Assembly (NCBI RefSeq): GCF_018977255.1
Contig: NW_024704743.1
Location: 16,060,001 to 16,124,000 of the forward strand
Length of the DNA: 64,000 nucleotides
From: Callorhinchus milii
Lineage: Eukaryota
Reading direction: 5' to 3'
The notes under the pieces are model-generated. The model was not told the DNA's origin. It did no database searches and saw nothing but the letters and a program-made list of their open reading frames with translations. Position 1 is the stretch's first letter, and every line of letters starts with the position of its first letter. This document shows positions 12,201 through 62,553 of the stretch, piece after piece. Made by a program: the position numbers and the translations under genes.

Positions 12201-13935
12201 TGCAGTTCTTTAGAAAGAATTTACAGGGCAATAATTGTCCCAGGGTCCTTTTTTGGGGGTGTGGGGAGAAAGGAGAATTTGCAAAACATAATTTTCCACT
12301 CGCACATTATCATCAAACAATTTATCCTGGAAATGCATATATGTGTGGATATCTCACTAGGCTCCGCTGAAATGCTCCCCTCTTGTCAATAGTTTACCAA
12401 CACCTGATGCCAAAGTTTGCAAATGAATAATGGACTCACTGGGGAGCCTTAGGAAACAGTGATCAAGTACAAACAAGTGAAATGCCTCAAGTAAGTGAGA
12501 GGGGAAAGTGTGGAAGTGGATAAATCAGAGGGGGGGGTGTGGGGGGAGAAGAGATAAGAGTACAGCAATGTGGAGAGGTAAAACAGTACAGCAGTCCGGG
12601 GAGACGGACAAAAAAAAAGCTGTGTGGAGAAAACTAGAATGGGATGCGAGGAAGTAATTATTATTACTATTATATTTAATAACGTTTATTAATATTAAGT
12701 GTAACAGTCAAATACAGGCAATTTACAGTGGCATCAACACCCCCCCACCCACACACACACACATTTTGCTTTCATATTATTGATAAGACAGAGCTCCCCG
12801 TCTCACTGTACCTGTGCTCCGGGCTGCGACTGTAAGGGCTGGAGGAGCGGCGTCTGCTGTAACGGTTGGGGGACAGCGCCCCGTACTCATAGGGGCTGTG
12901 GTGACGGCCGAAGCTGGGGGAGCGGCGGCGGGAATAGGGGCTGGGGGAGCGGTGGCGGCGGCTGCTGCAGCTGGAGTAGGGGCTGGGCGAGCGGCCTGTG
13001 TAGCCGGGGTGCACGCTGGACTCCCGGGAGCCGTAGAAGGGCTTGAAGGCGAAGAGCGGCGGCGGCGGACTGCGGCCGTACACGTCGAAAGCGCCGGGCC
13101 GGGGACTGGAGCTGTGACCATGGCCCGGGCCGTAGGCCTGCGGGTAGCAGGAGAGGCCGCCTCCGTATGGGCTGCCGTCTCTGTACAGCGGACTCGGCGA
13201 CTTCTTCCTGGTGGCGGCCGGGGGAGAGCTGCAGGTGCGGTAGGCCCGTGGGGCCTCGCGCTCGCGGTAAGCCTTGGGCGGCTCTTTGTAAGCGGCGGGC
13301 GGCTCCTTCTCGGCCTTGACGCCCGCGCTGCCGCTTTCCCCGCGCTCCTTGCGGTGTGCGCTCCTGCCGGCCTTGGCCTCCTTGTCGGCTCCGGACGCTT
13401 CTCGCTGACCGTTGCTGCTGCCGCTCGGCTCCTCGGCGCTGCCCCGGCTCCTGGCCTTGTTTTTACTCCGGTTCTTGGCCTTGCTGTCGGCGCGGGGCCT
13501 CGAGCTCTCCCCCGCCCGCTCCCGCCTCCGCCGCTCTTTATCCCGGGCTCGGCTCTGCTCTTTGCCCGCACGGGATGAGAAGCCGCCGCCGGGGGACGCG
13601 GGGCTCCGCGAGAATGTCTCCGACTGCGAGCTCACGTCGTCGTATTCGACCAGGGCCCGGGCCGGGTTGCGGCCCAGATTCGACGCCGAGGCTTGGCCGC
13701 TTTTCCCGTCGCAGCGCCGCTGGGGTCGGCTCTCGGCCGAGTGCTTCCCCCGGCGTTTCCTGTGTTTGGAAGCCGAGCGGTCCTTGTCCCGGGCCTGCGA
13801 GGGCCCCGGGGGGACGCCAAAGCCGCCGCTGTCACCTCCACCGCCGGCAGAGCCGGGTGTCCTGTCGCTCCGGTGCTGCCTCTTGCCGCTGGGGCTGCGA
13901 CCCCGGCTGCCGCTGAGCGTGTCCGAGCTCGGCAT
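64..13935 (-). CDS. CDK13: Cyclin-dependent kinase 13, 5' part (coding exons 13935-12812, 11740-11123, 3475-3305, 203-64); gene continues beyond the left edge
   Basis: Spliced translation gives MPSSDT..., [28 protein letters not shown], an RS domain, [34 protein letters not shown], then ICGPR...[29 protein letters not shown]. The [16 protein letters not shown] and SSLAAELNK motifs and the RALA neighbour favour CDK13 over CDK12. All introns are GT-AG and phase-compatible. Confidence 0.95.
979..1472. repeat. Unclassified dispersed repeat; second copy at 32227-32783, inverted partial copy near 15010-15130
   Basis: Collinear similarity, e.g. GGCTCAGGAACC(A/G)GACTAC...CATTCCATTGCCAGGCATGTCA in both. 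Confidence 0.85.
2462..2773 (-). mobile_element. tRNA-derived SINE, short form, full length
   Basis: tRNA-like head GGAGTCCTGTAACTCAGTGG with box B; tail TATCAAATGCAAG(TAT)n. Confidence 0.9.
3305..3475 (-). CDS. CDK13: CDK13 coding exon 3 (171 nt)
   Basis: TACAG|C ... [34 protein letters not shown]...KKRPK. Confidence 0.95.
3760..4200 (+). mobile_element. Old CR1 LINE 3' fragment (others near 10320-10470 and 47780-48010)
   Basis: Degenerate CR1 ORF2 C-terminal sequence. Confidence 0.65.
7258..7581 (-). mobile_element. tRNA-derived SINE, short form, with L2-identical tail loop
   Basis: Head GGAGTCCTGTAGCTCAGTGG; tail GGGACGTCCTCCCGACGTGAAAAGCGC...(ATT)n. Confidence 0.92.
8611..9260 (-). mobile_element. 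L2 LINE 3' fragment
   Basis: [28 protein letters not shown]; (GTT)n tail. Confidence 0.88.
9335..9570. repeat. (GA)n microsatellite and GA/GT-rich low-complexity tract
   Basis: Read directly. Confidence 0.9.
9585..9945 (-). mobile_element. L2 LINE 3' end
   Basis: [40 protein letters not shown] tail. Confidence 0.88.
11123..11740 (-). CDS. CDK13: CDK13 coding exon 2 (618 nt)
   Basis: TTTTAG|G AGG CTG AAA TCA ... [21 protein letters not shown]...[10 protein letters not shown]. Confidence 0.95.
12812..13935 (-). CDS. CDK13: CDK13 coding exon 1 (1124 nt, RS-rich N-terminus)
   Basis: ATG at 13935; donor CACAG|GTACAG is phase 2, matching the exon 2 acceptor. Confidence 0.9.
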
Positions 13936-14325
13936 TGACCTCCGCCGCGGCGTCGCCTCAGTCCATCCGCTCGGGTCCGCCGGGCATCCCGGGGCGGGGA
14001 GAGGCCTCTGGGGGAGAAAGGAGCGGCGCCGGGAGCTCGTCTGCTCGGGAGGTCCCCCCGCTCTGCGGTCCTGGTGTCAAGAGTGTCCGTGTCCTCGGTG
14101 TCTGTCTTCTCGGGGTCACTGGGCAGCACTGCTCATGGCTGCGGAGCCGCCGTGGCCTCTCCTGCTCGCCTTGGCCCGGGGATGAGCTGTGAGTTCTCTC
14201 TCTCAGCACCGGCACATCCTGCGTCATAAGCCGGAGTTGAGTGAAATAAAGTGCCGGGGCCTGCGCCGGCTCTGTCTGTCTGTCCGTCTCTCTCTCTCTG
14301 GGGGCCGGGCTCCGTCCCCTCTGCC

Positions 14326-14347
14326 TCTCTCTCTCTCTCTCTCTCTC
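14326..14347. repeat. (CT)n microsatellite in the CDK13 5' region
   Basis: Read directly. Confidence 0.9.
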
Positions 14348-14628
14348 GCTCGCTCTTCCTCTCAAAATGGCCGCCGCTTCTCCAGCCGGAACCCGCCGCC
14401 ACCGCGTGTCACGGGTCAAAGGTTCGCTTCCTGGTCTCCCGTCTCCTAGTAACCAGCCCGGCTCCCCCTCCCCCTCCCTGTTCTCCGAAGAAAGCACCGG
14501 TGTCGGTGTCATCTCCTCACGTCCCATCCCTGTTCTCCCCGTGGGCGAGCTGAACTGCCTCCAAGGTGCCACGTTTGGCAATGGGGTATCGGAATCGGGC
14601 CCACCCTCTGTGGCGGTCGGTCTCGGTA

Positions 14629-22026: not shown

Positions 22027-33271
<11,245 letters not shown>

Positions 33272-34204
33272 TCACCAGAATGTTGATCTTGACTGCCAGT
33301 AATCTAGTCCTAAAATAAAGGACAATTTACAACCTTGTATATATTCTGATTTACATTCTAATTTTATACAACACTGTTAACATCCGATATAGTTATCAAA
33401 GCAATTTTATTAAAATTCTTGAATTTAATATAGCACCTTTTACATTGAGAGGACATCCTAAAATGATTTTCAGGAAATATTGTAGTGCAGTGACTGTACT
33501 TTAGAGGTGAATATAGCAGCCAATTTGCACTCAACAAAGTCCCACAAACAGCCATGAAAAGAATGACCGTGTTTACTGGAGGATTGTTGGCCAGGACACT
33601 GGGAGAAACGTTTTCCCACTTTTTTTTTTGAATAGTACCATGAGAACATTAACTTCTACCTGGCAGGCTGGACCTCAGTGTAACATTTCACCAAAGGATG
33701 CCATCTCCAACAATGCAGTGCACCTTGAACACTTCATTGGAGTTAGCCTAGAAGAGTTCAAAGTACTGACATGGTATTTGGACCTATAATCTTCTGATTC
33801 AAGAGGCAAGTATGCAGCAAATCAAGCCGGGCTGAAACTTACACACAAAGTAGAATGACCAATTGAGAAATGATAGAGAAAGAATGAGGAAGGGGCAAGA
33901 GGGGAAGAAAAATCAGACCTCATGACCTCAAGCAACTCTCCTATCCTAGCAGCAAATTTCAAACGATATTTTACCTTTAGTCAGAATTGGGAACCTGGAT
34001 TTTCACAGCATATTCTTCAAAATTGTCTGTTCCAGGCATCCGATGGTGTAATGGATAGTGCTGCAGTTTACAGACCAGGAACTCACTAGTTTGAATGCCA
34101 GTCTATGCTGAGTTTGCTAGTTACAGCCAGGAGGTTAGATTGGCCCCAGCCTTCCCAAGGTTAGAGATGTGGAAACCAGACAGTGTTCTTGCTTCTCGGG
34201 TACT

Positions 34205-39864: not shown

Positions 39865-39877
39865 TACTTGAATACAT

Positions 39878-40467: not shown

Positions 40468-40691
40468 GCCTAATAATAATCCCTCCAAAAACCAAAAACA
40501 ATAATTAAATTGGTCATTTTCAATCTACGACTGTTTGTGGGACATTGCTGTGCGCAATTGGCTGCCGCGTTCGCCCACAAATATACAGTCAATTCACTTT
40601 ACAGTGTGTTCTGTGAAGCGCTTCGGGACGTCCTCCCGACGTGAAAAGCGTGACATCAAATGCAAGGATTATTATTATTATATTATTATTA
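40468..40691 (+). mobile_element. SINE 3' two-thirds with CTCCC-loop tail
   Basis: Near-identical to the corresponding part of the 7258-7581 copy. Confidence 0.9.
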
Positions 40692-42655: not shown

Positions 42656-43004
42656 AGTAATAATAATCCTTGCATTTGATATAGCACTTTATCACGTCTT
42701 CGAGACGTCTCAAAGTGCTTCATAGAATACACTGCAAAGTGAATTGATTGTATATTTTGTGAGCCAATTACGCACAACAGTGTCCCACAAATAGTCGTGG
42801 ATTGAGTGACCAATGTATTATTTTTTTTGAAGAAATTAGTATCCCGGAAAAGTGATCCACCAAATGGCTAACAGCCGGGTTCCTACTTACTGCTAGGTAA
42901 ACAGAGGCATGTGGAGTAAGGACACTTGCCCAACCTTTGCCCTGCCGGAAATCAAACCCAGGTTTCTCACTTGCAAGGTAATGCTTTAACCACTGAGCTA
43001 CAGG
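42656..43004 (-). mobile_element. tRNA-derived SINE, long form
   Basis: Head, central block and tail all present. Confidence 0.9.
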
Positions 43005-44329
43005 GCTGTACATAGTAATTTCACTTGACTGTAAATCCTGTGAGGCGATGGCCTGACTTGAATGGCACTGTACCAAATGCAAGGATGATTATTATGTTGG
43101 CCCAGTTATCCTCTTCACTTTCTCACAGTGACAATTGTTTACCATATTTATCATTGAATAAATTGAAGAAAGGGAAAGTAAAGAGAAAAGGGGAACTTGG
43201 AAAGATCCTAAAAAGGAAGTGATAAATAACATATCTAACCATTTGTACATGAGTAATTCTTAACAGGGGGTTTCCACTATTCTTGTAACAGACTTTAATC
43301 AAATCTTTTTTTTGAACTTCCAACACATTATCAGATTGCCAAACATGTTCTGAATCACATTACTTCTACTGCAGCACAGTTATTATTTACAAAACAAAAA
43401 ATAACGCCTTCAAACAAAGTGATTGCTAGTTCTTGCTGTATGTTTTCATCCAGTTGCTCTCTGTTTTAGCCAATAGACCACCGTTTGTTTCTGTGCTGTC
43501 GGTGAGATCTTGTGTTATTCGGTTTGATCTTTCACATCACTATCACCAGCTTTATTTCCTGATATTTGCTTAGTGATAAAGTAGTCACGCCTTTTGTCAG
43601 ATTACAGTCTGGTCCCATCTCTTCAACAACAATTTATATTGTGCCCCTCACATCAGGAGATCGTCCCAAGGCGCTGATATTCCTCCTGCGCTCAGATCAG
43701 TTCCATGCCATGCAATTTCAAGATGGACTTCATGAAAATAGTGTGTCCTTTTTCACCGTCTGTTTCTTTTAGCCTCAAAATGGCATGGCTTCACTTTCAA
43801 TTATATTCAAATAACTAAACTCTCACCGCAAGTGTTGATGACCTGGTCAGTCTTCCAGGTTTATGCCACATCCCGAGTGTTGCTTTGGGTACAACTCCCC
43901 ATTCAAACCCCAGCAAGTCAGGTTAGAACATACTTAATTGCGGGGGAGCACAAGGCACAGCAGAATACAGTATTAAGTATTTTTCTAAGGTCTGTTTTAA
44001 GCAGCTCTCCCAACTGTGCAAAGGCAGTGCAATTAATCCTGTCCTGGTATTAGGAGACTGTTAATGAAATGTAGCATTAAGAGAAACTTAATATATTAAG
44101 TTATAATTGGAATCTGATCAAAGTTTGTTTATGTTAATATCTGAAATCTAAATTTGATTCCAGATCACGCAATATTTCTCTGCTGTGTCCTCTCCCCTAT
44201 GAAGTTATCTGACTTAAGATCTCTTTCAAGAAGTGGCTTCAAAGAGAAGAGTCACCAAGGGAAGGATTTGATAACAATAATAATCTTTATATTTGCTTTC
44301 ACAGCTAAAGGTCGGCTCAGAGTGGATAG

Positions 44330-44930
44330 ATATGTGTGTTTGGGTGTTTACAAGCAGCAGAGAAAGTGTGGGAGGAGTGAGCACAGGGAGAGCGAGAGAG
44401 AGGAGCTGAGGCTCTCACAGCTGCAGTGACTGGGGAGCAAGTCACACACACGCAGCGGGGTCCAGAGCAGCCAAGGTTGGGCGGGTTCATGCCCAATTGG
44501 GCGTGTTTTTGTTTCACTTTGGGCGGCTGCTTAATTCTTATTTTTTTTAATTTAAATCAGCAAAAAGACCTTTTCTTAGCTAGATTCAAAAGCACTGACC
44601 TAAATCGGTCACTGTGCTACCCCTACCCACCAGAGGAGGACACGCTGGATATTGAGCTACATTTGGGCTATTATTGGGCGGCGTCTGGGCTACAAGGGTC
44701 CTCAAATCTCTGGCTACACTGAACACCAGCTGTTTCCTAACAGCGACAAGAACCACCTGCCTTTGCCTTTCACCCTCTGGGAGGGCGTTGGTTTATTAAG
44801 GCTAAAAGGGCGTTGGTTGATTAGTTTGTTGCTGTGAACTAATATTTGCTGAGCAAAACCAAATGACAACCCTTTTTAACATCTATATTTAAAAAAAATT
44901 CAAACTAAACCAATATTACGCCCCAATGGC
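44330..44930 (+). promoter_or_regulatory. Candidate promoter and non-coding first exon of the MED1-like gene
   Basis: Locally GC/CpG-enriched; GGGCGG boxes near 44479, 44521 and 44676; several CCAAT/ATTGG; possible donor CAAG|GTTGGG at 44476. Confidence 0.4.
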
Positions 44931-46002
44931 GTGGCCTCCCACTCACCTCTGCTCTGGTCTGAAGGACATATGGACCTGATCCTGTGGTGTTGTTTCCTTG
45001 TGGAAAGGAGCCTGAACCCCAAAACGTGTGTAGTCAAGGATGGAGTGCTGATGGTTTGTGCTGCACTGTGTGCTGCAGTGGAGGAGTTCTCCCTGTTCCG
45101 CAGTGATACTGCACAGCTGGTTCTGCAGCTCTTGTCATACTAAACTGTACCCCAAAAATTGATTACTTCCCTAACTTTGAAGAGCTGGAGGAATGTCCGA
45201 TTGTTACCAGCATCAAAAAGGCGTGGTAGCTCGGCAAGAGTATATATATATGTGTGTGTGTGTGTGACGCTATCCAGAACAAGGACATCTTGTGATTTTA
45301 TATAGCCCTGTGTGTAGGGTAATGTCTCAGAGCATTATAAAGACTGGGTCAAGCTGAGGAAGGCAGGTGTGTTCGAATAAGTAAGTTTTAAGGTAAGTCT
45401 TAAAGATTGATAGAGGGGGAGGGGTAGAGGGAGGATAGGCTATGAATAATATAGTATCAATTCAGAGGAGGGCTGTACTTGTTGTTGGATGGCTCCATTC
45501 ATTCTGTACAATGCACAAAGCCCTTAGGTGAAGGTGTATTCTAATGACTGGTTACAGAATACTTTATGTTCACACACTCGAGGCATGAAATTCCACCCAA
45601 TTTTACCTTAAAATTTAAGAATGTGCAGAATTGTGGAAAATTCTTAAATTCAGCTTAAATTAGAACACAGAAACTGATATTTCCAGCACAGAAAGAAGCC
45701 ACTGGTGCATCATGTCCTTGCTACTGCTACTTGTTTTAGTTTCCCCCTAGCCTGCATGTGGGGTGCCATATAAATGCCCAGGGACTGACTTTATTTAGGT
45801 TTATTTGGTAGAATATATCTTCTCTTTAAGCATTTTAGATTTTTGTGTCAAAGAAATATTCTGAGCAACGCTTGAGCCAAAAGAGGCTGATGTACTTTGA
45901 ATGTGCTTTTTACCAAGTGCATAACTATCAAAATCTGTCTCAAGATGTCACCTCAGTTATTGTTATAGAATGCAACAAGAATATAATTCATTTGTTTTGC
46001 AG

Positions 46003-46103
46003 ACATTGATCGAATATCTAAAACTTCTTTGATGGAAAACGTGCGGAATAAGCACCGTGAAAAACCATGGAGCGAGTTTCTGAAAGTTGTCCGGTACACT
46101 ATG
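46003..46103 (+). CDS. MED1-like exon (IDRISKTSLMENVRNKHREKPWSEFLKVVRYTM)
   Basis: TTGCAG|AC ... ATG|GTGAGC. Confidence 0.85.
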
Positions 46104-49100
46104 GTGAGCATTGGTACTTTATGTTTGTGAATAAATAATTTTGAGTGGATCCCCAACTAGAAACTCACAAAATTATAAATCTGTCATTGGGGGAAAAAAA
46201 TAGTTCATAAAATTCTGATCTTTGGAAGAATTATTATTTATATCTTTTGCAAATAGTTGATTAACAAATAGTCTTACTTGCAAATGTTGCATGTTATTCA
46301 ACACCATACATACTACTTTATTTTCCTTCTTGAACTACAGTGGGGTAGGGTGGGAATATCATATTAATACCATCTATACTCAACTGGCAGATAGATTACA
46401 CCATTTAGTTGATTGGCATCAGTTTAATCTTGCTTTAACTGATATATAATTTGTGGACAATCCTGCATCCAACACCTTGAAGAACTGGGGAATGCAGAAT
46501 TTGAAGACTGAACCTGAACATAAAATGAGATGTGTACAAGTACCACAGACTCCTCCTACCACGGTACTGAATCTATCTGAACCTGGATCAAGTAGATCTC
46601 TGTAGATTTGAGACTCAGCCAATTGTCTGTGCTGTAAATATCAAGCTCACTGTTACATGCTTGCTCAGCTGTATGTACAGTTTTGTATTATATAAACATT
46701 AGCAAGACTACTGGTGATGTATTTTTTGTGAGGAAGTTTTGATTTTTCTTTTGACTTGTATTCCACATCCATTGGGTTAGAACAATAACATTTGAGGAAC
46801 GAGCCTGAACTGTGGGTCTTTGATTAATTTGCAAAAGTGTTCATATTGGATAAAAATCATACATGTATCATAAATCTAATTGGAAAGGGGTACATGTTCT
46901 CCTGCGCATATATCCATCTAATCCACGGCAGCATGTGGGGTATATAATGCTGGCCATTATTACAGGTAATTATTGCTTTAGTATGATTTGAATTCTATCA
47001 CTAGTGACCATTATATGTCATCTTGTGATGAGGAAACTCAGGCATGGTTATAAGTTGCGACCACATAGACTGTCTATGAATGTAGATCTTGCACATGCTG
47101 GAAGCTGGAAATCAATGTTCTCTCATCTGTAATTGAACTTTAAATTTTGATCCTTCTTCAGCTGAATCAAATCCAAGTCCAAAATCCGCCATGTTGTAAC
47201 AAACATTCTTTTTGGACAAAATATCACTTCTTAGTAAGGATTAATACAGTTACTTTGTGGTAAATTCTTTTTCCGAATTCTTTGCAGGATAAGCACACTG
47301 GTACTGGAAACATTGGTGAGAGCCTGTGTGTGTGCAGTTTAAAGACACTGCAAAAGGCTTTAAATGGTGAGAGCATTTGGAGTGACGAAAAATAATAATA
47401 ATCCTTGCATTTGATATAGCGTCTTATTACGTCAGTGAAAGCATCAGTGGTATTCTTATTAATCAAAGAATGTGTTGTAAAGTAAAATTTTCAATGTTGT
47501 ATTCATACAAGATGAGATGTGTACAAGTCCCATGCCAAGTCCCAATGTACCCTTAAATGCCTGAGACACTTGAACAAATTGTATTTTAGGTATAATTCAA
47601 TAAAAATGGTCTATTTTTCTGTTTTGTCTAGTTGCGTCTTTGTCTGCCATGGTAGACCGACTAGAGCTTCTAGCAAGAGAGAATGGGTAAGAACCATTGG
47701 AAGTGACTTGTAGTCACACCTATACCTTGTACTTTACACACCTTTGCCTTGTAAAGTGGGCTTGTGTCCCAAGACCTTACTCAAAACAAAAGTGAATGCA
47801 AAAAGGGAAGACTTGCAACATCACCCCTCTATCTTCTCTGTTCCAGTAAAAATAGGCCCAGTTCATTTAGTCTCTGCTCATGGGTTAAACTACTCATCCT
47901 AGTATGTCATTCTAGTAAATCTTTCCTAAAGTGGGGTTTTGCACACTCAAGTGCAAAACTGGACATAATACTCTAACTGTGATCTAACTAATAACTTACA
48001 CAAGTTAAGCATCACAACATTCAAAGCATTCAGAATTTGGCTTTTTAAAAAAAAATGTAGTGTTAATTTTGAAGCCACTATTCTGTAGTTCCTAAAAGAG
48101 CCTGGCTTCAAAATTAACACTACATTTAAGAACTAGCCAAATTCTGCATTTTTTGAAATAATTTAAGCCTGGACCATAATGAAAGACAGCAACAATAGCA
48201 AATTCACCCAAAGTACAAAATGCAGTTTAACTGCTCCAGATCCACCAAGTCATAACACTGTCCTATTGAAACAGTTGCACTGTCAAGTTGCAAGAACATA
48301 CATTACCACTGGACACATACATTTTGGCAATGAAGAAGTTGAGAGTAAAATAGATAAACATAAAGATGTGAAAACTATAACTATAATAAACACTTTATGC
48401 TGCTTTAGATGAGAAAAAATATATAATTCTGGATAAGATGTCCACAAAGTTCAATTATTTTTTGTAACAATTTGGAATATTGGCTTTCAAGTTAGCTTTG
48501 GTGTCTTTCCATGACTGATCTTTGATTTGTAAACTATGATCTTCCAATGGAAATGAATGAGGGCTGTACTTGATGATGATGTTAATAATGATAAATAATA
48601 AACCTTACATTTGGTATAGAATCTTTTATGTCAGGATGACGTCCCAAAGCGCTTCCAGGATGTACTGTAAAGTGCAGTTACTGTGTGTTTTGTAGACGCC
48701 CAAAACTTCACTCTGTGAATTCAGTTGCAACCACCTTGGGTCGAGTCTGGGAAGGTATTTTACTGTCTCAGTGGTCCATTGAATTTCTTCGACTGTTTTT
48801 GATCAAGTGCCACACGGCAATAAATGTTGATTTAGCAGAAATTAACTGAGATGTCTGCCCGATGTATTCCTAAACCCTCTTAAAAGGAGTAATATTGAAT
48901 TGTGGAAGTAGTTACAATCCAAAATATATTGCTTAAAATATTATTTTTAGTTCAGTTAGAAATGTTTATGCAATCATTAGTCTGTATTGGAATGATTTGT
49001 AGACTAATAAGCCAAATCAGAGTCAGCTGAATTGTAGAGTTTGTCTAACCATGATGTATGTCACCTATGTGTGTGTGTGTGTGTGTGTGTGTTTGTTGGT

Positions 49101-52100
49101 TGAACAGTTAAATAAAATAAAAAGTACAAAATGTGTTTATTACAGCTGCAGCTCTCTTGTGAGTTGTTGATGTAATGGTCCTACATTGTTTTGATTAGAA
49201 TCAGCTCATGGGTACCCAAGGACAGTCCCAGTTTGTATAAACCAGCATGAAAACACATATCAGGTGGATGAGATCATGTAGATTTGCACGGACCATCCTA
49301 ATATTTTTTTAAAAAAAGACAATTATCAAAGAGGTATAGCTTAGCTATGCTTCGTTCAGTCAGAATTGATCATCCCAAGTGTTCAGTTCGAGTCAGTGAG
49401 AGAGCGACTATTTCCCCTCCTCCAGGAAGGCAGAACTTCCACTCCAGGTTTTGCGACTCAAACCACTCGACCTCAACTGTTCCTGCAATTCCAGGAAAAA
49501 AGCAAAAGACAACAAGAATAGAAGAACTGCGATGATCCAAGAATACAACTGCAACACAACTGCTAGAGATTCAACTTTTGTCCTTTGATTCAACACTTGC
49601 TATTATCAACGTTCCAGAGATGAGACCTTTGGCTCTTTGATTCAATGGCCCCCTATTCCCAGCTCAACAGAGAGTTAACACTATTACTGTCAGTGCTTTC
49701 CAGGCTCAACAGAGTTGTTAATTCCACTACTGGCTGTTCCTTCAAACAAACCCAAGCAAAAGATATTTCCCTACTGTTTATGGACTTTGATATTGACTTT
49801 AATATTGTAATTGCGGTAACATTGATATACATGAGCATTGCAGCAAATATTGTTTGTCATAACCCTGCCTATTGCTGCTATGTTGTTGAACCGATGCAAC
49901 TTTTTTGCTTTATTAAGTAAACAAGGTTTAAATATAAAATGCAAGTGACATTGTTCCTCTATTTACGGGTTCCTAATATAACATTTTGACTAATAGAATA
50001 AGCTGGTGTTTTTGGCCCCAACTTTGTCCCAGACTACAACAATGTGGATAACTCCATGACTAACCTTGCCTTCATACCCAACATAGCCATGCTATATTTG
50101 AGTTAAAACTGCAACTATTTGGGGTTTAAAGTAAAATATTGTGTTTTCTCCTTGCTCCCTTTGCTTCCAGACTCTGCTCTCACCTGAGTGCTACAGGCAC
50201 TGAGTGTTACATCACCTCAGATCTGTTTTACCTAGAGGTCCAGTTGAAGCCCAGTGGGGAAGTGCAGGATGTCAAAGTGGCTCACTTGGGTGAGAACCCT
50301 GAGGTAAGGTCTGCCGTTAGTCTGCAGTAAATCGTGTGCTCTTTTTGTTGCATTGTAGTCAACTTGTGATAGAATCTGTTTATAATCTAGATGTAAATGT
50401 AGTTTAGGGCATAGCTGGTTGAAAACCTATTTTCAGCTGCGGATAAAAAAAAATCCTTGTTGCCCAGTGTTTGCAGCATCTCCTTTCTCTTTCATTATGA
50501 TGTTTCACAAAGCTTACTTGACTTTGTGAATGACAGCAGACTGTCTTGGATTTACAACATAATGTGTACTTCAGGACTAATTGTTTTTTGTGTGTGTGTG
50601 GAGAGGAAGGTTTGTTAGATACTTTATTGCTTCTGCCCTATGGAAAGGGAGGAAATTTTAAGCTATCACTCACATTTTCACATCTGTGTTAATCAATGTA
50701 GTTGTTTATTCTTCAGATAAATTATATTTTCCTTCATCTTAGAGCTGTCAAGTGTTGCTGCAGTCTTTAAGGTAAGTAAATTTGCATTCCTAGATAGTGG
50801 CAGATTGTTCATGATAATAGTTTCCCTAGCTTCCAAGGTGGGGTATTTATATGAGCTCACACTTATAACATAGTCCAAGGTAAACAGTATTTACCAAAAG
50901 CAGCACAACGACCAAAAATAAAAAAAACTGTAACACATATGCAATACTTAAGATGAACTTTAACACAACATGCAATCTTATACATTAAGAACCTACAGAG
51001 TTTCAATAACTGAAGCATTGACTGCCAGTATCAATCAATAGTTCCCAACACAGACAACCACAACAACTTGCATTTGTATATAGCGCCCTTCACGCAAGAT
51101 AGCATCTCAGAGCGTTTCAAACACCTCTTCTCTGTATCCCCCCAAGGGACCCTAACTCTCTCGTTCTCTATCCTTTATTCCTGACTTGTTCCTTGTTTCT
51201 CGGACTGCCATGCATCATTCTAATCATGACTGCTGTCCTTGTTCCATCTGTTTATCTTGTTGGTTATCCTTTGTCAATGTATCTTAACTGGCATGTTAGT
51301 CACAGCCCCTCTTGTTCAACCTTCATTCCTGGAATTATCTCTCTTGGCCTCTCTTCCTGGAACTAAATCACTTAGGGCACCTCAGGGCGAATGCCTCAGT
51401 GAGAAACACCCAACTGTTGGAAGACACTATCTGCTCCAGCTGCATCCCTCAAGGAAACATCCCACCATTAGCAGAACCTTACCTAATTCCTCAGTTAAAC
51501 ACCAAACTGTTGGGGGGCCCTATCTGTTTCATCCCTACTTTAGCTTCCTAGCTAAGCACATACTACATTCATTCATATTTTACAATACCTTGCAAAACCA
51601 TCAGCAACTTGCAATTATACAGTTTCTACCAATGTAGGAAAATATCTCTAAGTGATACAAATCACAAAGACAGAGTGGGAATCCAAGTATGGTGGGAGAA
51701 GGAAATGGGGGGAAGGGAGGTACAGATTTAAGGTGCAATCAATGAGTTTTCAGAGGTGATTTTAGCATGAAAGACGGATGTAGAGATTTCGAATTTGTAT
51801 TAATTCATTTATTCAGGCAAAAGGATTTTGCAGAATTCACGAAGCATTTGAAGAGACTGACTGATCTCTATGACTTCTCTGGGAACAGGTACTGCATCTC
51901 ATTCTATGGCACTTTAAACATGCAACTTCACATTATCCACATTGCGCTGCTTAATCCTTGCAATGTATTTGTGTACTTGCTGTGCTTCCTCTCTTAGGAA
52001 AGTAGAGACAAACATTTATTCAGCTCTGAAGTCTCTGGAGATTGATCTCAACACGATGTCTGTCCTGAACAGGTAAGACCAACAAAAATGTAAGTATTTC

Positions 52101-55100
52101 AAAATAATTTGCTGACTAACTCTTAACTGTTTGCTCAACCATCATAGAGGCTGTGTTAGTTAGCAAAGGAATCCAGGTGCACAGATTGAACATTTGTTTG
52201 CAAAAGAAAAGCATTATTTAAAAATGAGACAGTTCAAAACGAAATGATTGATTCAAACTTCTCGGATGAAATGGAGAACAATTGTATTTAATGAGAAACT
52301 TTGAGAACCAGGAGATGTCATGTAAGGAAATACAATTTGCACAACAATCGGGCAGAGGAGGGGATTGACTCAGTAACATCCAAAAGTCTGGATGTGCAAA
52401 GGAAAAAGAATCAGCTGATAAGGAATCCAACGCTGAACCCATGGTTTGGTGCTGTGGAGTCTAATGATGCTGACTTGTGTTCTGTGTTTAATATTAGACG
52501 AGTAAGAAATGCTGGCACACTCTGCACCATACTCTGTGGATCTGTTGGGTATCTTACACCAAGGTGTGGAAGTAAGTAATGGCTACATCCTCCTAATCTC
52601 AAAAGCACGGTTTTAAAAACTTGGTGAAACTTCTTTTCAGAGAGATGAGACAAACGTTAGAGGACTGCGTATAATAATAATAAAACTGTTGCATTTGATT
52701 TAGTGCTTATAACTATGAAGCATTTCAAAGCCCTTTACTGTAATAGTAGTGAACACCCTTTACGGTGTTTTAGTAGTGAACATGACAGCCAATTTGTTCC
52801 TAGCAATGTCCCACAAAGGGCTATGAAGTGAATAATAATAATCCTTGCATTTGATATAGCACCTTATCACGCCTTCGAGACATCTCAAAGCACTTCACAG
52901 AATATATTGTGTATTTTGTGGGCAAAACCCTGCAGGCAATTGCACACAGCAGTGTCCCACAAACAGTTGTGGCTTGAGAATGGGAAGAGAGAGAGAGAAG
53001 GAATAACCAATTTTATCTGTAGGCCACTTAGCTATGAGCTTGAGTCCCAATAACCTTCTGACCCAGAAGCAGGAGTGCTACCAACTGAGCCAAATGACAT
53101 CTTCTTAGGTTCCCTTTGGTGTGTAGGCAAATAAAATGTGCAAAAATGACCTCTTTACCCATCTGATTTCTCCCCCCGCTGACGTTCCCCTCATCCATCA
53201 GCTGTTGCTCCTGGCTGCACTGATCTTGTGAGAGTAACTTACCAGGAATACAACATTTGCAAGTTGCAATAATTGATAAATTTGTCACAGACTTCATTGC
53301 GACTTGTGAGTCAGTCAAGGGAAACCACGTGGGTTTCCTATATGGAATACTGATGTTCTCAAAAAGACAAGAATCCATAGTTTTGTCCTCCTGGATTTTA
53401 CTGTTTGAATCAATCATTGCTTTATACTTGACATGGCTAATAAACATTATAACAAAGTTGTCAGCTTCTCTGAAATGGTCTATAGTGTAATGTGACTGTT
53501 GGTTTCTTAAGACTGTAGGTTTTGTAGCCCTGCACATCAGTTGTGAGATTTATTTGAACTCTCCTCAAAAAGGTCCTGATGACTAACTATTTTATACCAT
53601 TGCAGGCAGTCTTATGAGCTTAGAGTACTACATTTCCCCTTACGAATTGTTGGGACAAGGACTAAATTCACCATCAGGTAAAAGCAATGGGATGCATATT
53701 TAGAACTCTTTTGCCTGGAAAAAGTAGTATCCACTGAGTTGAAACAATCACAAGATTTGTATGATTGAAAGAAAGCCCTTCAGCCTCTCATCTAACTCTT
53801 TTAGAATACTCATCCTCCCATCACAGCATCAAGCTTTTTGTGTGTGTATTATATATAATATATTATATAACTTTTTATATATATAATATATATAATATAT
53901 ATATACAAAATATATATATTATACAAAATATATGTGTGTGTGTGTCTCCAATCCTGGCCTCAATTATCCTTCTGGGCAATTGGTTCTAGTCATTAATAGG
54001 TAAAGAAAAAATGTCCTGAAATTGCCCTTATAACTCTAAACCTGTGTCCTTATTCTGCTGTGTTGGTATAAAGATAATCCCAGGAATGACCCTCCTGTCA
54101 ATGATTTGGAAAGTGGCAGACCACAAACCCTTTAAGAAAACACATTTTTGCTGAGAGACCCAGAACAGGAAAGTTGGGCATTGTGGAGGAACATCTTGGC
54201 ACAACTGTAGTGGCGAGCAGCAGCTAACCCTTTCCTTGTGTGTGGAGCAATAGGTTGACACCTCAAATTCGGGCAAGTAGGAAAGAGAGACTCAGAGCAT
54301 GTATTGAATAAAAAAAACTTCAGATAATAATCCAAACATTTGATATAGCGCCTTATCACGTCTTCGAGACATCTCAATGCGCTTCACAGAATATACTGTA
54401 AAGTGAACAAAACACAAAATACTGCAGATGCTGGAAATCTGAAACAAAAACAGAGATTGCTGGGAACACTCAGTAGGTCAGACAGCATCTTTGGAGAAAG
54501 GAAAGTGAGTCAACGTTTTGGTTCCATGACCCTTAGTCAGAACATTGACTCACTTTCCTTTCTCCATAGATGCTGTCTGACCTGCTGAGTTTTCCCAGCT
54601 CTCTCTATTTGTTACTGTAAAGTAAATTGACTGTATATTTATCAAAGTCTTTTAATGCCAATTAGTCCTTTCTTTGAAGATGCACGTTTCTTCTGAACAA
54701 TTAAAGCAGGTTAAATATGGAGCCAGGAACAATGGGCCCAATCCCACAAAAATATTTTATAGTTTTAAGAATAACGAGGATAACTTGATCTCAAATTTAT
54801 ATACAAGTTACTGGAGGGGACAAATCCTTGCTTTTTTTGATAATAATCCTTGCATTTGAAATAGCTCTTATCACATCATTGAGATGTCTCAAAGTGCTTC
54901 ACAGAATACACTGTAAAGTGTTTTTTTGACTATTTTGTGGGCAAAACACAGTACCATAATTAACAGTAATTTGGGAGGTAGTTAAAATCAAGATAATGTA
55001 GGAAAGCTTACTGCAAGATAATAGTCTAATTCCTTTCTACACCACCTTCAAACCACCTGAAGATTGCCACAGAATGACACTGTGATCAGAGGAAGTTCCC

Positions 55101-58100
55101 TCCACCATGGAGAGAATCAAAGAATATTGAGGCACAGAAGTAGGTCAGACAACAACCCATTGTATCAGAACTGGTGGTTTTCTCCACCTGAATTATCTGA
55201 TCAACCCTCCTGCTCACTCGCTCACTCGCTCGCTGTTAACTCAGATCAGTAGCACATGTTGCACCAATCAAAACTGCCCTGTAACTCTTGGCAATGCTTA
55301 CTGTACAATTGATGGGTAATGTTGAACTCTTCTTGCATTTTAGAATCACGGTCACCTGGGATGAAAGTGTTGGTTACTGTTGAAAGAACCGCTGCATTAA
55401 ATCAACTCCAGATTGCTCCTATAGTTGAATTTGAGCCTGTGACTGATGGGTGAGTCTATTGCTGTATGATATAGAATGAGGACAAACCAGGTAATGAAGA
55501 AACTAATGCTTACAGCTGTAACGTTTCAGGTTGTTGAGGTTTCCCTGATTTACACTAGGTTTTTTTTTCTTTCTCCAATGCAGGAGTTGAAGGGAGTAAT
55601 TAATGGGATCAGCTTTGCTCTGGATCATGTCAGCACAAAGCCTTTTGCTTTTTTCCTGCTGTTGGTGCCCGTTCTTGGAAGGGGAGTTTCCACTAAGCAC
55701 TCAGGGAACTGGAATTGATGTGTAATTGGGGCAATTCATTTTGGTTTGAGCATCTGTTGCTGGAGATGTTGGGTTTGTCGGCATCATTATGTGACAGCAC
55801 AATGAATTTATTTGATAAAAAGGTGAACTGCACTAGATTAAAGATACTGCACCTCTTTCAGACCACTTCTCTGCAACGCCCAACAGGCCAACAGATCTCT
55901 TTTACTTTCCTCTTCTCTTTCTGCTTTTAAAACGGTTGAACAGGTAAATGTTAATTGTTTCAGCTGTTTTTAAATGAATAAATCGGCCCTTGGGTGGATC
56001 CTAAAGCATTTTCTCTGCTTACAAGAAGCCAGAAAATTCAATAAGGTACTGGTAACTCTCTCCACCTTGCCCCCTCTTTGCCCGTCTTCTAATCCCACCT
56101 GAAGACCTTCCTCTTCGAACATATCTACAGTGACTTCCCCTCTTTCCCCGGCTCACCCCTCAAGCTTCTCTATTAAGTGCTTCAAAACGTTACCCTGTGT
56201 GAAAGCACTATATAAATGCAAGAGGTGGTGTTATTGGTAAGGATACTTAGAGTAGGATGTTAAGAAAATTTCCCCGAGATCTTCAGGTTTACGTTATTTT
56301 CAGTGCTCACTTCCTGATTGTGTTATACACAGTAATAACCATTGTTACTCTGCAGCACTTCTAGAATCACTGCTGTGAAAGACAGATTTTCTAATATAAC
56401 AGCAGTCGAGGTTTACACAGAGTATTTCATTTTATTGTTAACAGTAGGTTAGGTCATACATGAAGTGAATGAAGAAAATTGTAAAACAAGTGATCTATGG
56501 GTTGTAGTAAAGTACTGTACTTGTTTCCAGTATTGAAAACCTGGTGAATTATGTTGTAACAAACAACTAGCGATTGACCTGGAACCATGGAAATTTACAG
56601 CACAGAAGAGGGCCTTTCAGCCCATCATTTCCGTGCTGGTTCTTTGAAAGAGCAGTCCTTTCAGTCCCATTACCTGCCTTGTTCATCTACTGCTGTAAAT
56701 TACTACTTTTTGAATATCCCTGTAGATGTGATTCAGTGCTGATTTTTAAAGATTAGTAAGTTCTTGCAAATCTAAATTGTTTAACTGCAAGAAGGGTTTG
56801 TGTTTTTAGTGTACTGTTCAGATCAGTATTGTGCAGAGTTGTTTTTTTTTAAATATGCTGTTCTGTTGTTTTCCAGTATCCCTTTGTTCCAGTCATTAAC
56901 TGATGGTAACAGTGCTGAACTCTCTGCTTGTTTCCTCTTGAAGTTTCCTCGCCCATTTCCCATGATTTGCAGTCTCATTCAGAAAATTCAGAGATACACA
57001 GGTTAAAGTTCAGTCTTTCAGTTTTTAAAAAAAATGTACTTTTGCTTTTAATTGGTTACTCACTTCATGGCTGTTTGTGGGACATTGCTGTGTGCCAATT
57101 GTCTGCCGTGTTCATCTACAAAATACACAGTCACTTGCAGTAAATCCATGTCTGCTTTCTATGTTCAGTGATGTCTTGATCATTTCTGAATCTTATCTTT
57201 TCTGACACAGGAATCTCAATACAAACTGACACACAGAAAGCTCCATTACACGGACTTATCGCACAGGCTCTCCTTTCTGAAAGAAACATTACTACAAATC
57301 CTTGGGAATCTATGTGTTTCTTTGTGGTAAGCATCCAGAAACATTAAATTCACAGACGTATGTCCATAAACCCACACTAAAACACTGTTTGTGATCTTCT
57401 CTGGTACTATATGCAGCGCTTATAGCTCTCTTTCTAAAAATCATATTATAATTCTTACCTTAGGTTACAAACATTTCTCAAATCTAACAGTCAATACTGT
57501 CCTTTAAAAGGTTTGTTAGCAAAAAATGTTGGAGGTGGATGGCTGATGTTACCTTTTTCTGCTTTGTATACGTTAATCGTTTCATTTTGTCCATAAAACT
57601 CTACATTTAGACCAATGCCCCTTAACTTGTATTTATCCCTATTAAGTTTAATCTACTGCTCCTTTGTCCATCCACTTAAATTGCTTAAATAACTTTGAAT
57701 CAAATCCCTACACTGATCACCTGACTGCAGAAATGTTTGGTATTACCATCAACAGTTGCAATCATGAGATATTTAATGTCTAACAGAGGACATGCATTTT
57801 TGAAGCTCAATTATAATCACTCGAGGGTAGCCTTTTTCCTTTAATTTAGCATTTGGTATTTTGTACTTTCACGAAGATAAATTTTATTTGCTTTTAAGAT
57901 GCAAATAGGTTGGTCGCTGAACGATTTATATTCTCAACTCGTTTAAAAATTCTCAAAAATGTCTGAGAGAATTATTAATGTAGTGACATCACCTGATGAA
58001 TACACGTCTATCTTGAGTGTACAATGTAAAGTTAATAATAATCCTTGCATTTGATATAGTGCTTTTCACGTCTCAAAACGCTTCACAGAATAGACTGTAA

Positions 58101-61100
58101 GGTGGTGAATTGACTGTATATTTGTGGGCGAAATGCGGCAGCCAATTGCGCACAGCAGTGTCCCACAAACAGTCGTGGATTGAAGCGACCAATTATTATT
58201 GTTTTTTTTCTTGAGGGATTATTATCAGGCATGTGGAGTAATGAAACTTGCCCAAGGTTTCACCCTGCCAGGAATCAAACCCAGGTCTCTTGCTAAGTTA
58301 AGTTGTGAGGATGATTGTTTTTTTCCCCAAAAGTCCCTTCCAGGTGAGGAACAGCATTGCTATATGCTTAATAAGGACTCCACCAAGCCAGGTGCCCTGG
58401 TTAGTAAGATTCCTTTCTCACATCCAAAGCAAGTGCCTGAAATATTGGAGGTCCTTCGACACCAAGCAGCCTGCAACACGTTGATTAGCAGTTTCATACG
58501 GGAAACAGTAACTGTGGAAGGTAAGTGTATATTAGTTTGTGGTAAAATGTTAACTGCACAGTTTGACAATTTGATTTTCTACAAAACAAAACTTAAAATA
58601 ACATAGAAATTAATTTGATACAGCATGAGTCCTATAATAGAACTGATATTTACACTGTGTCTGTTCAGGACTGGATCTAGATTTACTCTCGTTGTCGAGA
58701 TTATGCTTTATGCAGCATTTTAGAGTGTGCAGAATTGGCAAATTGTTGAACAAATAACATTTGTTTGCTGTAGCTCTTTTTTAAAAAGAAACTTTGGTCA
58801 CTCAATTCATGACTGCTTGTGGGACACTGCTGTGCACAATAGGCTGCCATGTTTCGCCCACAAAATATAGTCAATTCACTATTCTGTGAAGCGCTTTGAG
58901 ACGTCTCGATGTCGTGTTCAGGCGCTATATCAAATGCTATTATTATTAATTCAACAATGGAGCTCTCTGGTATTTCAGCCAAGTGATCATTGTTCCAGTG
59001 GAAGCCTACAGAATATTTGGCTTGGGAGGCATCAGATCTGAGCATGATCTGTCTGTTCCTGAAATCCACGTGTGTATGGTTTATACAGTACCAAAAATGG
59101 GGACCTGATTTTAGTTACCTTCCCCCAAGCCTATTCCTGACAAATGTGGTGCCTCTGTCTCCACCCATGCTGAGATGAGTTAACATCCTGTCTCGTTTTT
59201 TTGAGAATATCTGGGTAAACTCTACTGCGTTTTATAATGCATTGATATTAATTCTGGCAACATTTGTAGATTCTCTAAAGTGTAATGTTGAAGATGGTGT
59301 TATTTTGTTGAATACAGATTATTCTGAATGCCTTCATTTTGAAATTTACTCACTGAGTGACACCTGCATCAGCTTCACATTGAAGCATCCAACCGACGAG
59401 AGCCTAGTTTGTGGTAAGCAATGTACTGAAGATCAAAGGTTCCTCCTCTTGCAAGGGAAGTTAAATAGAATGTAGTTTCTGGAGTTAAAGGTTATTCAAA
59501 CGGTGAAACACCAAGTGGTGAAGGGATTTTGGAAGAGAGTTGCAGAGGGCTGGAGTAGTCTACTGCGCTCTCTAGAAATCCTTCTGCACGTGCTAGAAAT
59601 TGTGCTTCCTCTCTGCAAAATGAGTAGCAGGACAAGGGCGGAGATGAGAACTGCTCTGATAAAATTATTAACGTAGTAATCTAGCCACCAGTGTTTTGAA
59701 AGCATGTTGTTCCAGTCCTGCAGAATACCGTGCTGACAACTGTCTTGTCTAGTGACTGCCCCACCCATTTCACACCATTGATGATTGATCAGTCATTTTG
59801 CCTGTCCTCCGAAACGCTCTTCCAAAATCCCTTCACCACTCCTTTTTGCTCTCTACTTTCAAATCCTGCCCGAAGACAGGCCACTTTGTCTTTATTTTTG
59901 GATTTGACAAAGTTGACTATGGTAATGGATTCAATGTATAATGAATGAAGCGTGCCAATTGTTGGGATTTCGGACTCTCGGGATCGGAAGTCCCAACACA
60001 ATAGATAGAAAATCAGGTTACGAGTATGAAAATAAGTAGCCGTCAACAAAAACTTTGCACAGAAGTTTTGAATTTGGTTATCCATAGTAGATTTTTGAAC
60101 TCTTGCTTTTTTAAAAAAAATTATTACTGATTTGGACAAGACTATTTTTAGCAACATTTCCAAGTTTATGAACAAAGCCTATTCTTGCCATTTTATTCAT
60201 TCCTGACAGTTTCTTCTATCATTTCTGGAGCAATTGATCAGGAAGGTGCCTGTATATCAATTGATTCTACATTCATGGCATTAGATGAATATTAGAATCT
60301 ATTATTGGCTACAAATAGTCACTACACTTTAAAATTGTAAAGTTCTTTGGAACATCATGAGGATGTGATAAAATGGAGCCTCAAATACAAGGATTCATTA
60401 TTTATCCTCTTATCACAATCCCTTCAAAAAACAAATAATAATTTGGTCACTCAATCATGACTGTTTGTGGAACACTGTTATGCGCAATTGGCTGCCGTAT
60501 TTCGTCCACAACATACATTCACTACACTTTACAGTATATCCTGTGAAGCTTTCTGAGATATTTTGAAGACGTGATAAGGCACTATATCAAATGCAAGTAT
60601 TATTATTATTACTACTATTAATATTAGGTTCTACATTCGTAGTGGAGTTGCCACCATTTGCCATGACTTTTTTTTACTGGATTTCCTCATTAAGGAATCC
60701 TATTAGAAAATTCAATTATTATATTATCCTCTGATCTGCTGCTAAGTGCACATTGTCGACTGGTCAGGACATCAATTCCCACGATTCAAGTGGTGGTAGT
60801 ATTGGAGGATAGAGGAGGGGTATTACGAGTTAGGAAGTGACTAACATGAGTAGTGCAAATAAATCCAAGTCGTTTTGATAAGAAATTGAATGGAACTTGA
60901 GTATGTACAATAAGATTTATAAAGATGAGACTTATGTGAGTTTTACTGTCTAAGATACAATCCATTTCCAGAATGGTCCAAGATTTTGTAATAATAATAA
61001 TATGGATAGTTTGTGGATTACAACTACTTTGTTAAGGCACGGCCACACTCTGCTAATCAGGACGTTGTCCATATGTGTGCCTAGGAATATCTAAAGCTTT

Positions 61101-62553
61101 TGTGAGCCTCTTCAGCTCATCCCATACATGGAAAATAATGTTTTGGGTAATTGAAGAAACCATGGAAAAGTTTAATAAAATCTAGCCTCAGCAATAAGAT
61201 GAAACACAGAAGCTCTCAATAGCAAAAAAACACTTTCTTCAAGAGTTTGCAGAGACCTACAGTTTGAAAGGGAAGAAACTTAAATTGGAGCTTGTTTCCG
61301 TGTTGGCTTCACGACTGAAGTCATTGTATGTGGAGAGGGTTTGTTTTCCACACGTACTGTATTCTAAAGGACATGAAAATTGAGACATGTGATGTGTAAT
61401 TTTATATCATTTATTTCAGTGGTGATGGATGTGGTGAGCTCCAGAGAGATCATCTGTCAGCTCATGATGAAATCATCAGCTGCTTGCGTTTGCAGCGATG
61501 CTCATATTACTAGGGTCATCCACCGGTAAGAACAAAAGCACAAGAGTGAGTTTGTAAATGTAATTACATGTGTGAAAAGCAATTGTGTAAAACTATGTTG
61601 ACTGGTGCAAATAGACAAAGCAATCTTTACAATGGTTTCAGAAAGAATCGACAATTCAAATATTTAACTCTTCTCAAATGGACTCCTTTCCAGCTCACAC
61701 TATATTTTTCGTTAGGAGGTGCTTATCTAAGTCCCCAATCCACCAGGAAGATGGGAGATTGTCACAGAATTGACGTTACTTCAACTGTGCTTATCTTTCT
61801 AGGTATTGCTTTCCTTACAGAAGTAGTCACTACATGACTCAGGATTATTTTCTTGAGCAGTCTAGGTTTTATTCTTGCTGGCCTGGTTACCTGGTAGAAC
61901 ATAAGAAATACGAGACGACAAAAGACCAAGGTCCATCTAGTTCGCCTTCCACCTTCCTGGTGGTCGCATGCACATATGTCCTAAACTACCTATGTACTAT
62001 ATCCCATAAGAACATAACAAATGGAAGATATTTAATTATGTCTTTGTGTATGGAATACTGTTATGTATTCAAATCAAATAGTGCTTGATACTGTACTCCA
62101 GCCGACTGCTATAACAATCCTTTCAAAAAGATGTCCATCTCTTTGTAGCTCCGAGACTGTGTTATGGTTAGTAATATTGTTTGCTTTACATTGTAATGCT
62201 GTTCTAACCAATTGGCTCCTACGTTTCGCCCACAAAATACAGTCAATTCACTTTACAGTATATTCTGTAAAGTGCTTCAGATGTCTCGAAGACGTGATAA
62301 GACGCTATATCAAATGCAGGCATTATTATTATACATAAAATTCTTGTGTTGGTTTTCCTTAACGAAGGCAACATTTTGACAAATTTCCATTTCCTCTCCC
62401 AACAGTTCCATGTCTATCCCAGTCACAATGAGGTCAATCTACAAGAAGTCTCAAACACAGGAAGCAGCAGTTACAGAGGCCTCCAGAGAAGCTCCCACAT
62501 CATATATTAGTTGTAAATGTTTTGGTTCGTTACTTGAAAATCATGACAATTAA
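46003..62553 (+). CDS. MED1-like gene (Mediator subunit 1 paralogue), Med1 N-terminal domain only; 16 exons, 1574 nt open frame (514 aa from ATG 46032; true start may lie in an unlocated upstream exon)
   Basis: Exons 46003-46103, 47288-47366, 47632-47686, 50171-50303, 50743-50771, 51817-51888, 51998-52072, 52498-52571, 53606-53677, 55344-55449, 56877-57001, 57211-57326, 58334-58520, 59318-59413, 61420-61525 and 62406-62553 are all GT-AG and splice into one open frame. MED1 motifs in order: PWSE, LQKAL, DRLE, SHLSATGTECYITSDLFY, DVKVAH.GENP, GSVGYLTPR, ACF.LKFP, QHCY.LNKD, RHQ.A.NTLI, HP..ESLVCVVMDV, MSIPVTMR. Confidence 0.93.
47288..47366 (+). CDS. MED1-like exon (DKHTGTG...CSLKTLQKALN)
   Basis: TTGCAG|GAT ... 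AAT G|GTGAGA, 79 nt. Confidence 0.9.
47632..47686 (+). CDS. MED1-like exon (ASLSAMVDRLELLARENG)
   Basis: GTCTAG|TT ... GG|GTAAGA, 55 nt. Confidence 0.9.
49068..49092. repeat. (TG)n microsatellite
   Basis: Read directly. Confidence 0.9.
50171..50303 (+). CDS. MED1-like exon (LCSHLSATGTECYITSDLFYLEVQL...DVKVAHLGENPE)
   Basis: TTCCAG|A ... GAG|GTAAGG, 133 nt. Confidence 0.95.
50743..50771 (+). CDS. MED1-like micro-exon (SCQVLLQSLR)
   Basis: TCTTAG|AGC ... AG|GTAAGT, 29 nt. Confidence 0.88.
51817..51888 (+). CDS. MED1-like exon (QKDFAEFTKHLKRLTDLYDFSGN)
   Basis: ATTCAG|G ... AG|GTACTG, 72 nt. Confidence 0.92.
51998..52072 (+). CDS. MED1-like exon (KVETNIYSALKSLEIDLNTMSVLN)
   Basis: TCTTAG|G ... 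AG|GTAAGA, 75 nt. Confidence 0.92.
52498..52571 (+). CDS. MED1-like exon (RVRNAGTLCTILCGSVGYLTPRCG)
   Basis: TATTAG|A ... A|GTAAGT, 74 nt. Confidence 0.93.
53606..53677 (+). CDS. MED1-like exon (SLMSLEYYISPYELLGQGLNSPS)
   Basis: TTGCAG|GC ... G|GTAAAA, 72 nt. Confidence 0.9.
53850..53945. repeat. TA-rich low-complexity tract ending in (TG)n
   Basis: Read directly. Confidence 0.85.
54408..54612. mobile_element. Penelope-like-element terminal palindrome inserted in a SINE tail
   Basis: 58-bp inverted arms (54460-54517 and 54541-54598, 4 mismatches); loop carries a decayed hammerhead core; duplicated TACTGTAAAGT flanks. Confidence 0.75.
55344..55449 (+). CDS. MED1-like exon (SRSPGMKVLVTVERTAALNQLQIAPIVEFEPVTD)
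   Basis: TTTTAG|AA ... GG|GTGAGT, 106 nt. Confidence 0.9.
56877..57001 (+). CDS. MED1-like exon (IPLFQSLTDGNSAELSACFLLKFPRPFP...RYT)
   Basis: TTCCAG|T ... G|GTTAAA, 125 nt. Confidence 0.92.
57211..57326 (+). CDS. MED1-like exon (ISIQTDTQKAPLHGLIAQ...SMCFFV)
   Basis: ACACAG|GA ... GTG|GTAAGC, 116 nt. Confidence 0.88.
58033..58291 (-). mobile_element. SINE, short form, head truncated about 40 nt upstream of a MED1-like splice acceptor
   Basis: Matches the 2462-2773 copy. Confidence 0.9.
58334..58520 (+). CDS. MED1-like exon (SLPGEEQHCYMLNKD...RHQAACNTLISSFIRETVTVE)
   Basis: CAAAAG|TCC ... G|GTAAGT, 187 nt. Confidence 0.93.
59318..59413 (+). CDS. MED1-like exon (YSECLHFEIYSLSDTCISFTLKHPTDESLVC)
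   Basis: ATACAG|AT ... G|GTAAGC, 96 nt. Confidence 0.93.
60435..60610 (+). mobile_element. SINE 3' half (similar fragments near 26925-27060, 30499-30609, 52831-52975, 54841-54950, 58775-58947 and 62208-62332)
   Basis: Family body and tail. Confidence 0.85.
61420..61525 (+). CDS. MED1-like exon (VMDVVSSREIICQL...CSDAHITRVIH)
   Basis: TTTCAG|TG ... CG|GTAAGA, 106 nt. Confidence 0.92.
62406..62553 (+). CDS. MED1-like apparent last coding exon (SMSIPVTMRSIYKKSQ...FGSLLENHDN*)
   Basis: CAACAG|T TCC ATG TCT ATC CCA GTC ACA ATG AGG; TAA at 62551-62553. The 3' boundary is less certain than the 5' one. Confidence 0.8.

Follow-up and report, generated by a model that had tools for sequence, protein, structure and literature searches.

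Gene content of the window

The window analyzed in this study is a stretch of 64,000 nucleotides from Callorhinchus milii, and all positions refer to its first letter. The exon chains read in the window confirmed the order and orientation put forward in the first-pass annotation, with a CDK12/13-family kinase gene and RALA on the minus strand and a MED1-like gene on the plus strand. RALA was the only gene seen between the other two, both in the list of open reading frames and on reading of the window, and no downstream gene was recognized in 63300-64000. The features are as follows:

64-203, 3305-3475, 11123-11740 and 12812-13935, minus strand: coding exons of a CDK12/13-family kinase gene, read as CDK13, which runs past the window edge
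12001-14600: CpG island over the first exon and promoter of the kinase gene (GC 0.58 and CpG o/e 0.94 in 12001-14000)
22027-33309, minus strand: RALA, complete, 206 aa, with coding exons 33140-33253, 29819-30027, 25422-25596 and 22027-22149
37619-37643: assembly gap of 25 N, the sole run of N in the window
39325-39869: inverted-repeat element in the spacer from RALA to the MED1-like gene; its ends are 28-nt inverted repeats, and further inverted repeats lie inside it
44947-45100, minus strand: candidate donor for a RALA first exon from a donor scan, with further candidates at 34587, 36357 and 38162
46003-62553, plus strand: short MED1 paralogue of 16 exons, ATG at 46032, 514 aa from the ATG
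Exons 1-8 of this paralogue, plus strand: 46003-46103, 47288-47366, 47632-47686, 50171-50303, 50743-50771, 51817-51888, 51998-52072 and 52498-52571
Exons 9-16, plus strand: 53606-53677, 55344-55449, 56877-57001, 57211-57326, 58334-58520, 59318-59413, 61420-61525 and 62406-62553 (stop)

The first four coding exons of the kinase gene lie in the window, with the start at 13935, and the chain gives 684 codons without a stop if the joint of exons 3 and 4 is shifted by one base. We read the gene as CDK13 from N-terminal features that we take to be those of CDK13, and from RALA as its neighbor. CDK12 constructs ranked first in the search against PDB, on 35 near-identical residues only, and the PDB and Atlas searches left CDK13 and CDK12 unseparated for this kinase. 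Exon 3 of RALA scored 139 bits to Ral-A chains as compared to 128 bits to Ral-B chains. The acceptor near 33309 indicates a non-coding first exon further upstream, for which the donor scan yielded four candidate sites, two on either side of the gap. The translation of 30290-30500 on the minus strand (open reading frame 30284-30529) partly repeats the end of RALA exon 3, and this stretch is perhaps a decayed duplicated or alternative RALA exon.

No repeat of at least 20 nt is shared across the flanks of the assembly gap. None of the contig pieces listed crossed the gap (four of the 24 listed runs, region 33000-50850), and no splice joint in this region was present among the 15 joints listed for the same four runs, for which there were 6612 further joints; repeats swamped the matches. 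The element at 39325-39869, which we take to be MITE-like, contains the lone CpG-rich 300-mer of 30000-47500. Fragments of one repeat family, presumably LINE-like, were observed in introns and spacers at 8600-10050, 23880-24260, 28050-29150 and 36850-37310, and no Pfam family was recovered on the stretch 28345-29151. A short SINE-like repeat recurs throughout the window.

Structure of the MED1-like gene

The 16 exons located for the MED1-like gene, to which a first exon further upstream presumably belongs, are read in one frame throughout, and all acceptors are AG and all donors GT. The translation is identical from the tenth residue on to XP_007896300.2, a RefSeq model of Callorhinchus milii, and the gene has thus already been annotated. 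Public models of the protein disagree at two residues encoded in exon 55344-55449 (P0001 and P0438 versus P0437), where the window agrees with P0437. MED1 proteins from shark, chicken and amphioxus used as tblastn queries matched the same exons in the same order, and the exon sizes agree with what we take to be the sizes of the internal exons of human MED1. A first exon of 13 nt at 39785-39797, although in frame, was dropped since it sits inside the inverted-repeat element. A retrocopy or pseudogene is excluded by the retained introns and the open frame, while a short splice form of the canonical MED1 is excluded by an identity of about 50% and by the separate clade described below.

Domain, fold and missing tail of the predicted protein

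The protein matched the Pfam Med1 family with 195 bits, as compared to a cut-off of 25 bits (E=2.9e-57). A structural model built from an alignment of 42 rows, canonical MED1 rows among them, had a pLDDT of 81.5, and its top structural match was human MED1 in a Mediator complex built without the MED1 IDR (TM 0.74, E=1.8e-44). The predicted fold is thus that of the N-terminal part of human MED1 that is bound in Mediator. The protein breaks off ahead of the LxxLL boxes and of the disordered tail, contains no LxxLL motif anywhere, and ends where the structured Mediator-bound part ends (matched target length 467-472). A tblastn search of the window with the canonical MED1 tail gave no match in the 1.4 kb that lies past the stop.

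To place this protein among its relatives, 437 of 438 proteins were classed by their best BLAST hit into 150 short-class, 167 canonical and 120 other proteins. LxxLL motifs beyond residue 480 were present in 133 of the 167 canonical proteins versus none of the 150 short-class proteins, many of which are partial models. No short-class protein was found among the listed matches of 901-2570 aa (best 120 of 167). Since the MED1 proteins of amphioxus and both of those from lamprey carry LxxLL boxes, their absence from the short clade represents a loss. The window protein has kept 116 of 153 deeply conserved sites, as compared to an overall identity of 249/512, and 81 of the 153 sites are held by 80% or more of the proteins across the short clade. 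Long tails, acidic or made of tandem repeats but free of LxxLL, have reappeared in some members of this clade, including a gecko protein of 972 aa (P0127) and frog proteins of 717-787 aa.

Phylogeny and evolutionary rate

A careful tree was inferred from 41 chosen rows and 526 columns, with candidates taken from the matches listed (best 120 of 192, 150 of 416 and 120 of 167); wider quick trees agreed with it. The short clade comprised 19 rows with a support of 99/99 and included proteins from coelacanth, bichir, sturgeon, gar, teleosts, amphibians, lizard, turtle and birds, with the window gene branching first. Its sister was a canonical MED1 clade of 12 rows (100/100) with the sawshark at the base. 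A duplication confined to this lineage, which the first-pass annotation had set against its own proposal, was rejected (clade of the window gene and sawshark, AU p=0.0004), and so was a topology in which the window gene was forced together with all canonical MED1 proteins (p=0.005). By this tree, the duplication is placed before the split of chondrichthyans and bony vertebrates, and the window gene is resolved as no orthologue of the canonical vertebrate MED1. From root to tip, the short copy has evolved 3.1-3.8 times faster than the canonical copy in seven of seven pairs.

The lampreys fell outside both gnathostome clades in the best tree, with a support of 84/75 and with one lamprey row of odd composition. 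A clade of canonical and lamprey proteins was not rejected (AU p=0.378), and the tree therefore allows an older split and is by itself compatible with either 1R or 2R. Such a split would derive the short copy from 1R or from a local duplication before the vertebrates, and would assign the lamprey genes to the canonical lineage. We regard this as improbable, given the position of the lampreys in the best tree and the assignment of the flanking kinases to alpha1 and beta1, both of which are 1R copy 1. Both of the divergent long MED1 proteins of the sea lamprey (P0125 and P0133) have NR boxes, and the tail seems to have been retained in the MED1 duplicates of cyclostomes.

Taxonomic distribution

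The taxon was known for 124 of the 150 short-class proteins, and among these 124, drawn from the matches listed, there was no mammal, elasmobranch, snake or lungfish. For the other 26, the best reference was a frog, salamander, turtle, bird or teleost. Canonical MED1 was found in placentals, and the matches listed included neither class of protein from monotremes or marsupials. Judged by this absence among the listed protein matches, the short MED1 has likely been lost in mammals. Canonical MED1 from elasmobranchs was present in the searched collection, with no short form among the matches listed. As no short MED1 was found in sharks or rays, a second loss would be needed, and such a loss in elasmobranchs is possible.

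Gene order in gnathostomes and hagfish

The first-pass annotation had described the CDK13, RALA and MED1-like block as a mirror of the divergent MED1 and CDK12 pair, in which we take MED1 to adjoin CDK12 head-to-head. This reading is refined here: MED1 and RAL form the old pair, and the MED1-CDK12 neighborhood is derived through loss of RAL.

According to the tables consulted in PMC10972751, CDK13 belongs to CLGB alpha1 and CDK12 to CLGB beta1 in gar, frog, chicken and bamboo shark, and FBXL20 and CDK12 are located 34-70 kb apart on beta1. The same source attributes the alpha1/beta1 pair to the allotetraploidy of jawed vertebrates. Neither the MED1 nor the RAL family appears in the examined part of its paralogon table (file 6), and no positions for gnathostome MED1-like genes are given in the parts consulted of the supplements to PMC8302630 (file 4, about 4.0 M characters), PMC10115646 and PMC10972751 (file 6). 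The two paralogues were located on contigs of different size in all eight species compared. For birds and turtle, the short copy was on a large contig and MED1 on a small contig; judged by their size, these contigs may correspond to the chromosomes that a location on chr2 versus chr27 would predict. Provided that the join across the gap and the CDK13 call are correct, the two copies are located on paralogous chromosomes next to paralogous neighbors.

There are two hagfish MED1 genes, with 18 introns each, in the rows examined in PMC10972751. On chr4, MED1-2 and RALA-2 are 110 bp apart (29685096-29685206) and about 6 Mb from a Hox cluster (file 5), and on chr5, MED1-1 and RALA-1 are 4.3 kb apart. 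MED1-2 and RALA-2 are also assigned to one co-expression module, which is what a bidirectional promoter would produce, in a table that is without strands. Because MED1 abuts RAL twice in the hagfish, the adjacency of the two genes predates the jawed vertebrates. The sole hagfish CDK13 row, on chr1, is directly followed by POU6F2 and then AMPH, with no RAL or MED1 row between, and CDK12/13 is thus not adjacent to RAL in this species. POU6F2 and CDK13 are 0.42 Mb apart on chicken chr2 (PMC10972751). The hagfish and gnathostome arrangements look like complementary losses from one block of CDK12/13, RAL, MED1 and POU6F2, as far as can be judged from a hagfish table without strands.

In the hagfish, EPB41L5 is located near MED1-RAL at chr5:108.87-109.21 Mb, and CLASP and INHBB are ahead of CDK13 at chr1:42.68-43.68 Mb. 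These genes resemble what we take to be the neighborhood of human RALB, which suggests that the block predates 1R.

The position of a MED1-like gene next to RALA was read directly in one gnathostome, the Callorhinchus milii window, and across a gap that no listed contig piece spans in this repeat-swamped region. Both circumstances would fit a small-scale duplication or transposition of MED1 to a site next to RALA in a stem gnathostome, or a misjoin of the assembly. Since MED1 and RAL are adjacent twice in the hagfish, it is implausible that a jump or a misjoin should have re-created the same pair by chance, and the retained introns argue against a retrocopy. We therefore consider these explanations very improbable, and the join across 37619-37643, which repeats the hagfish arrangement, is probably intact.

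Origin of the short MED1

The proposal in the first-pass annotation that a CDK12/13-RAL-MED1 block was duplicated by whole-genome duplication and then reduced by reciprocal losses is consistent with the gene tree, the paralogon labels and the hagfish gene order. We suggest, with a probability of roughly 0.75, that the window contains the intact 2R alpha-1 (HoxA-side) copy of the old block, in which the MED1 gene has lost its tail, evolved faster, kept the Mediator-docking part and become an alternative occupant of the MED1 slot. In this scenario, 2R would have duplicated the block into CDK13-RALA-MED1-like on alpha-1 and CDK12-MED1 on beta-1, the HoxB side, where the RAL gene would have been lost. 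Before the split of chimaeras and bony vertebrates, the alpha copy would have lost the long last-exon region with the two LxxLL NR boxes and the disordered tail. It would then have evolved about 3 times faster, with the folded N-terminal Mediator-docking part kept, and persisted in the majority of jawed lineages, with an apparent loss in mammals.

Possible function

If this origin is accepted, the short MED1 somewhat more probably than not takes the MED1 slot as an alternative to MED1, and the resulting Mediator would lack the ligand-dependent receptor grip of MED1. This role is proposed because the truncation has cost the protein the parts that bind liganded nuclear receptors and has spared the part that is resolved in Mediator structures. 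A Mediator-independent role, or a slowly decaying passenger kept by sharing the upstream region of RALA, would have the same origin and would fit the roughly threefold rate, the variation at about half of the deeply conserved sites across the clade, and the apparent repeated losses in mammals and perhaps in elasmobranchs and snakes. Against these readings, the open frame and the full fold have been kept from chimaera to birds, the cut sits at the end of the structured Mediator-bound part, and the portion examined of a list from 2008 (PMC2475620) gives GenBank protein accessions for the forms of frog and zebrafish. We consider them unlikely, although less so than an older split, and favor the occupant of the MED1 slot.

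More tentatively, and with considerable doubt, most jawed vertebrates could since 2R have carried a tail-less MED1 that takes the place of MED1 in a fraction of Mediator complexes in certain tissues; such a Mediator would be deaf to LxxLL-dependent nuclear-receptor signals and weak in MED1-tail condensation. This switch would then have been lost in mammals, and perhaps in sharks and rays, and nematodes would have evolved one independently. The description of Mediator comes from mammals, where there is a single MED1. If a tail-less MED1 is also made in zebrafish, Xenopus and chicken, knock-outs of med1 in these species may be partly buffered. The long-argued question of what the NR boxes and the disordered tail add could, if the proposal is true, be tested with a version kept for more than 400 million years. 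The ancestral three-gene order in the window also explains the head-to-head MED1-CDK12 arrangement as a product of RAL loss.

Comparison with known systems

A close relative is MED1/TRAP220 (PF10744; PDB 7EMF chain A), with which the window protein shares the Med1 domain, the fold (TM 0.74), colinear exons and about 50% identity over the N-terminal 500 residues. Unlike MED1/TRAP220, it has 514 aa, no LxxLL and no long disordered tail, evolves about 3 times faster and is encoded next to RALA. No paper on the orthology, position or origin of the small Med1 was found in the open-access literature searched. Large and small forms of Med1 in frogs, fish and worms were recorded by Bourbon (2008; PMC2475620), whose Med1#2 entries include Xenopus tropicalis (688 aa), zebrafish (538), Tetraodon (466) and Fugu (468), with one Med1 given for chicken; the portions examined (Med1 supplement rows 1-32 of 73) present no tree, synteny or origin for the small Med1. 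From their size and taxa, the Med1#2 proteins of frog and fish are very probably the same gene as the short clade. A short second Med1 in addition to a long one is also present in C. elegans (MDT-1.2 or “MED1L”, 522 aa), but this is a nematode protein that presumably arose by an independent duplication.

The mouse construct MED1(1-530), which covers the same span and likewise has no NR boxes, supported adipogenesis with over-expressed PPARgamma2 and failed without it, as described in the parts consulted of PMC8091968. That protein is an engineered mouse deletion mutant, whereas the natural paralogue is half diverged. A survey from 2026 (PMC13069492) names no med1 paralogue in its first half and has one whole-word “med1” in the full text. 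It covers MED12/12L, MED13/13L and CDK8/19, which are likewise vertebrate duplicates of Mediator subunits with lineage losses. Those are subunits of the kinase module, whereas the short MED1 belongs to a subunit associated with the core and has been reduced to one third. The gene has been partly catalogued since 2008, and its origin as a copy from a whole-genome duplication followed by lineage loss is an ordinary kind of event.
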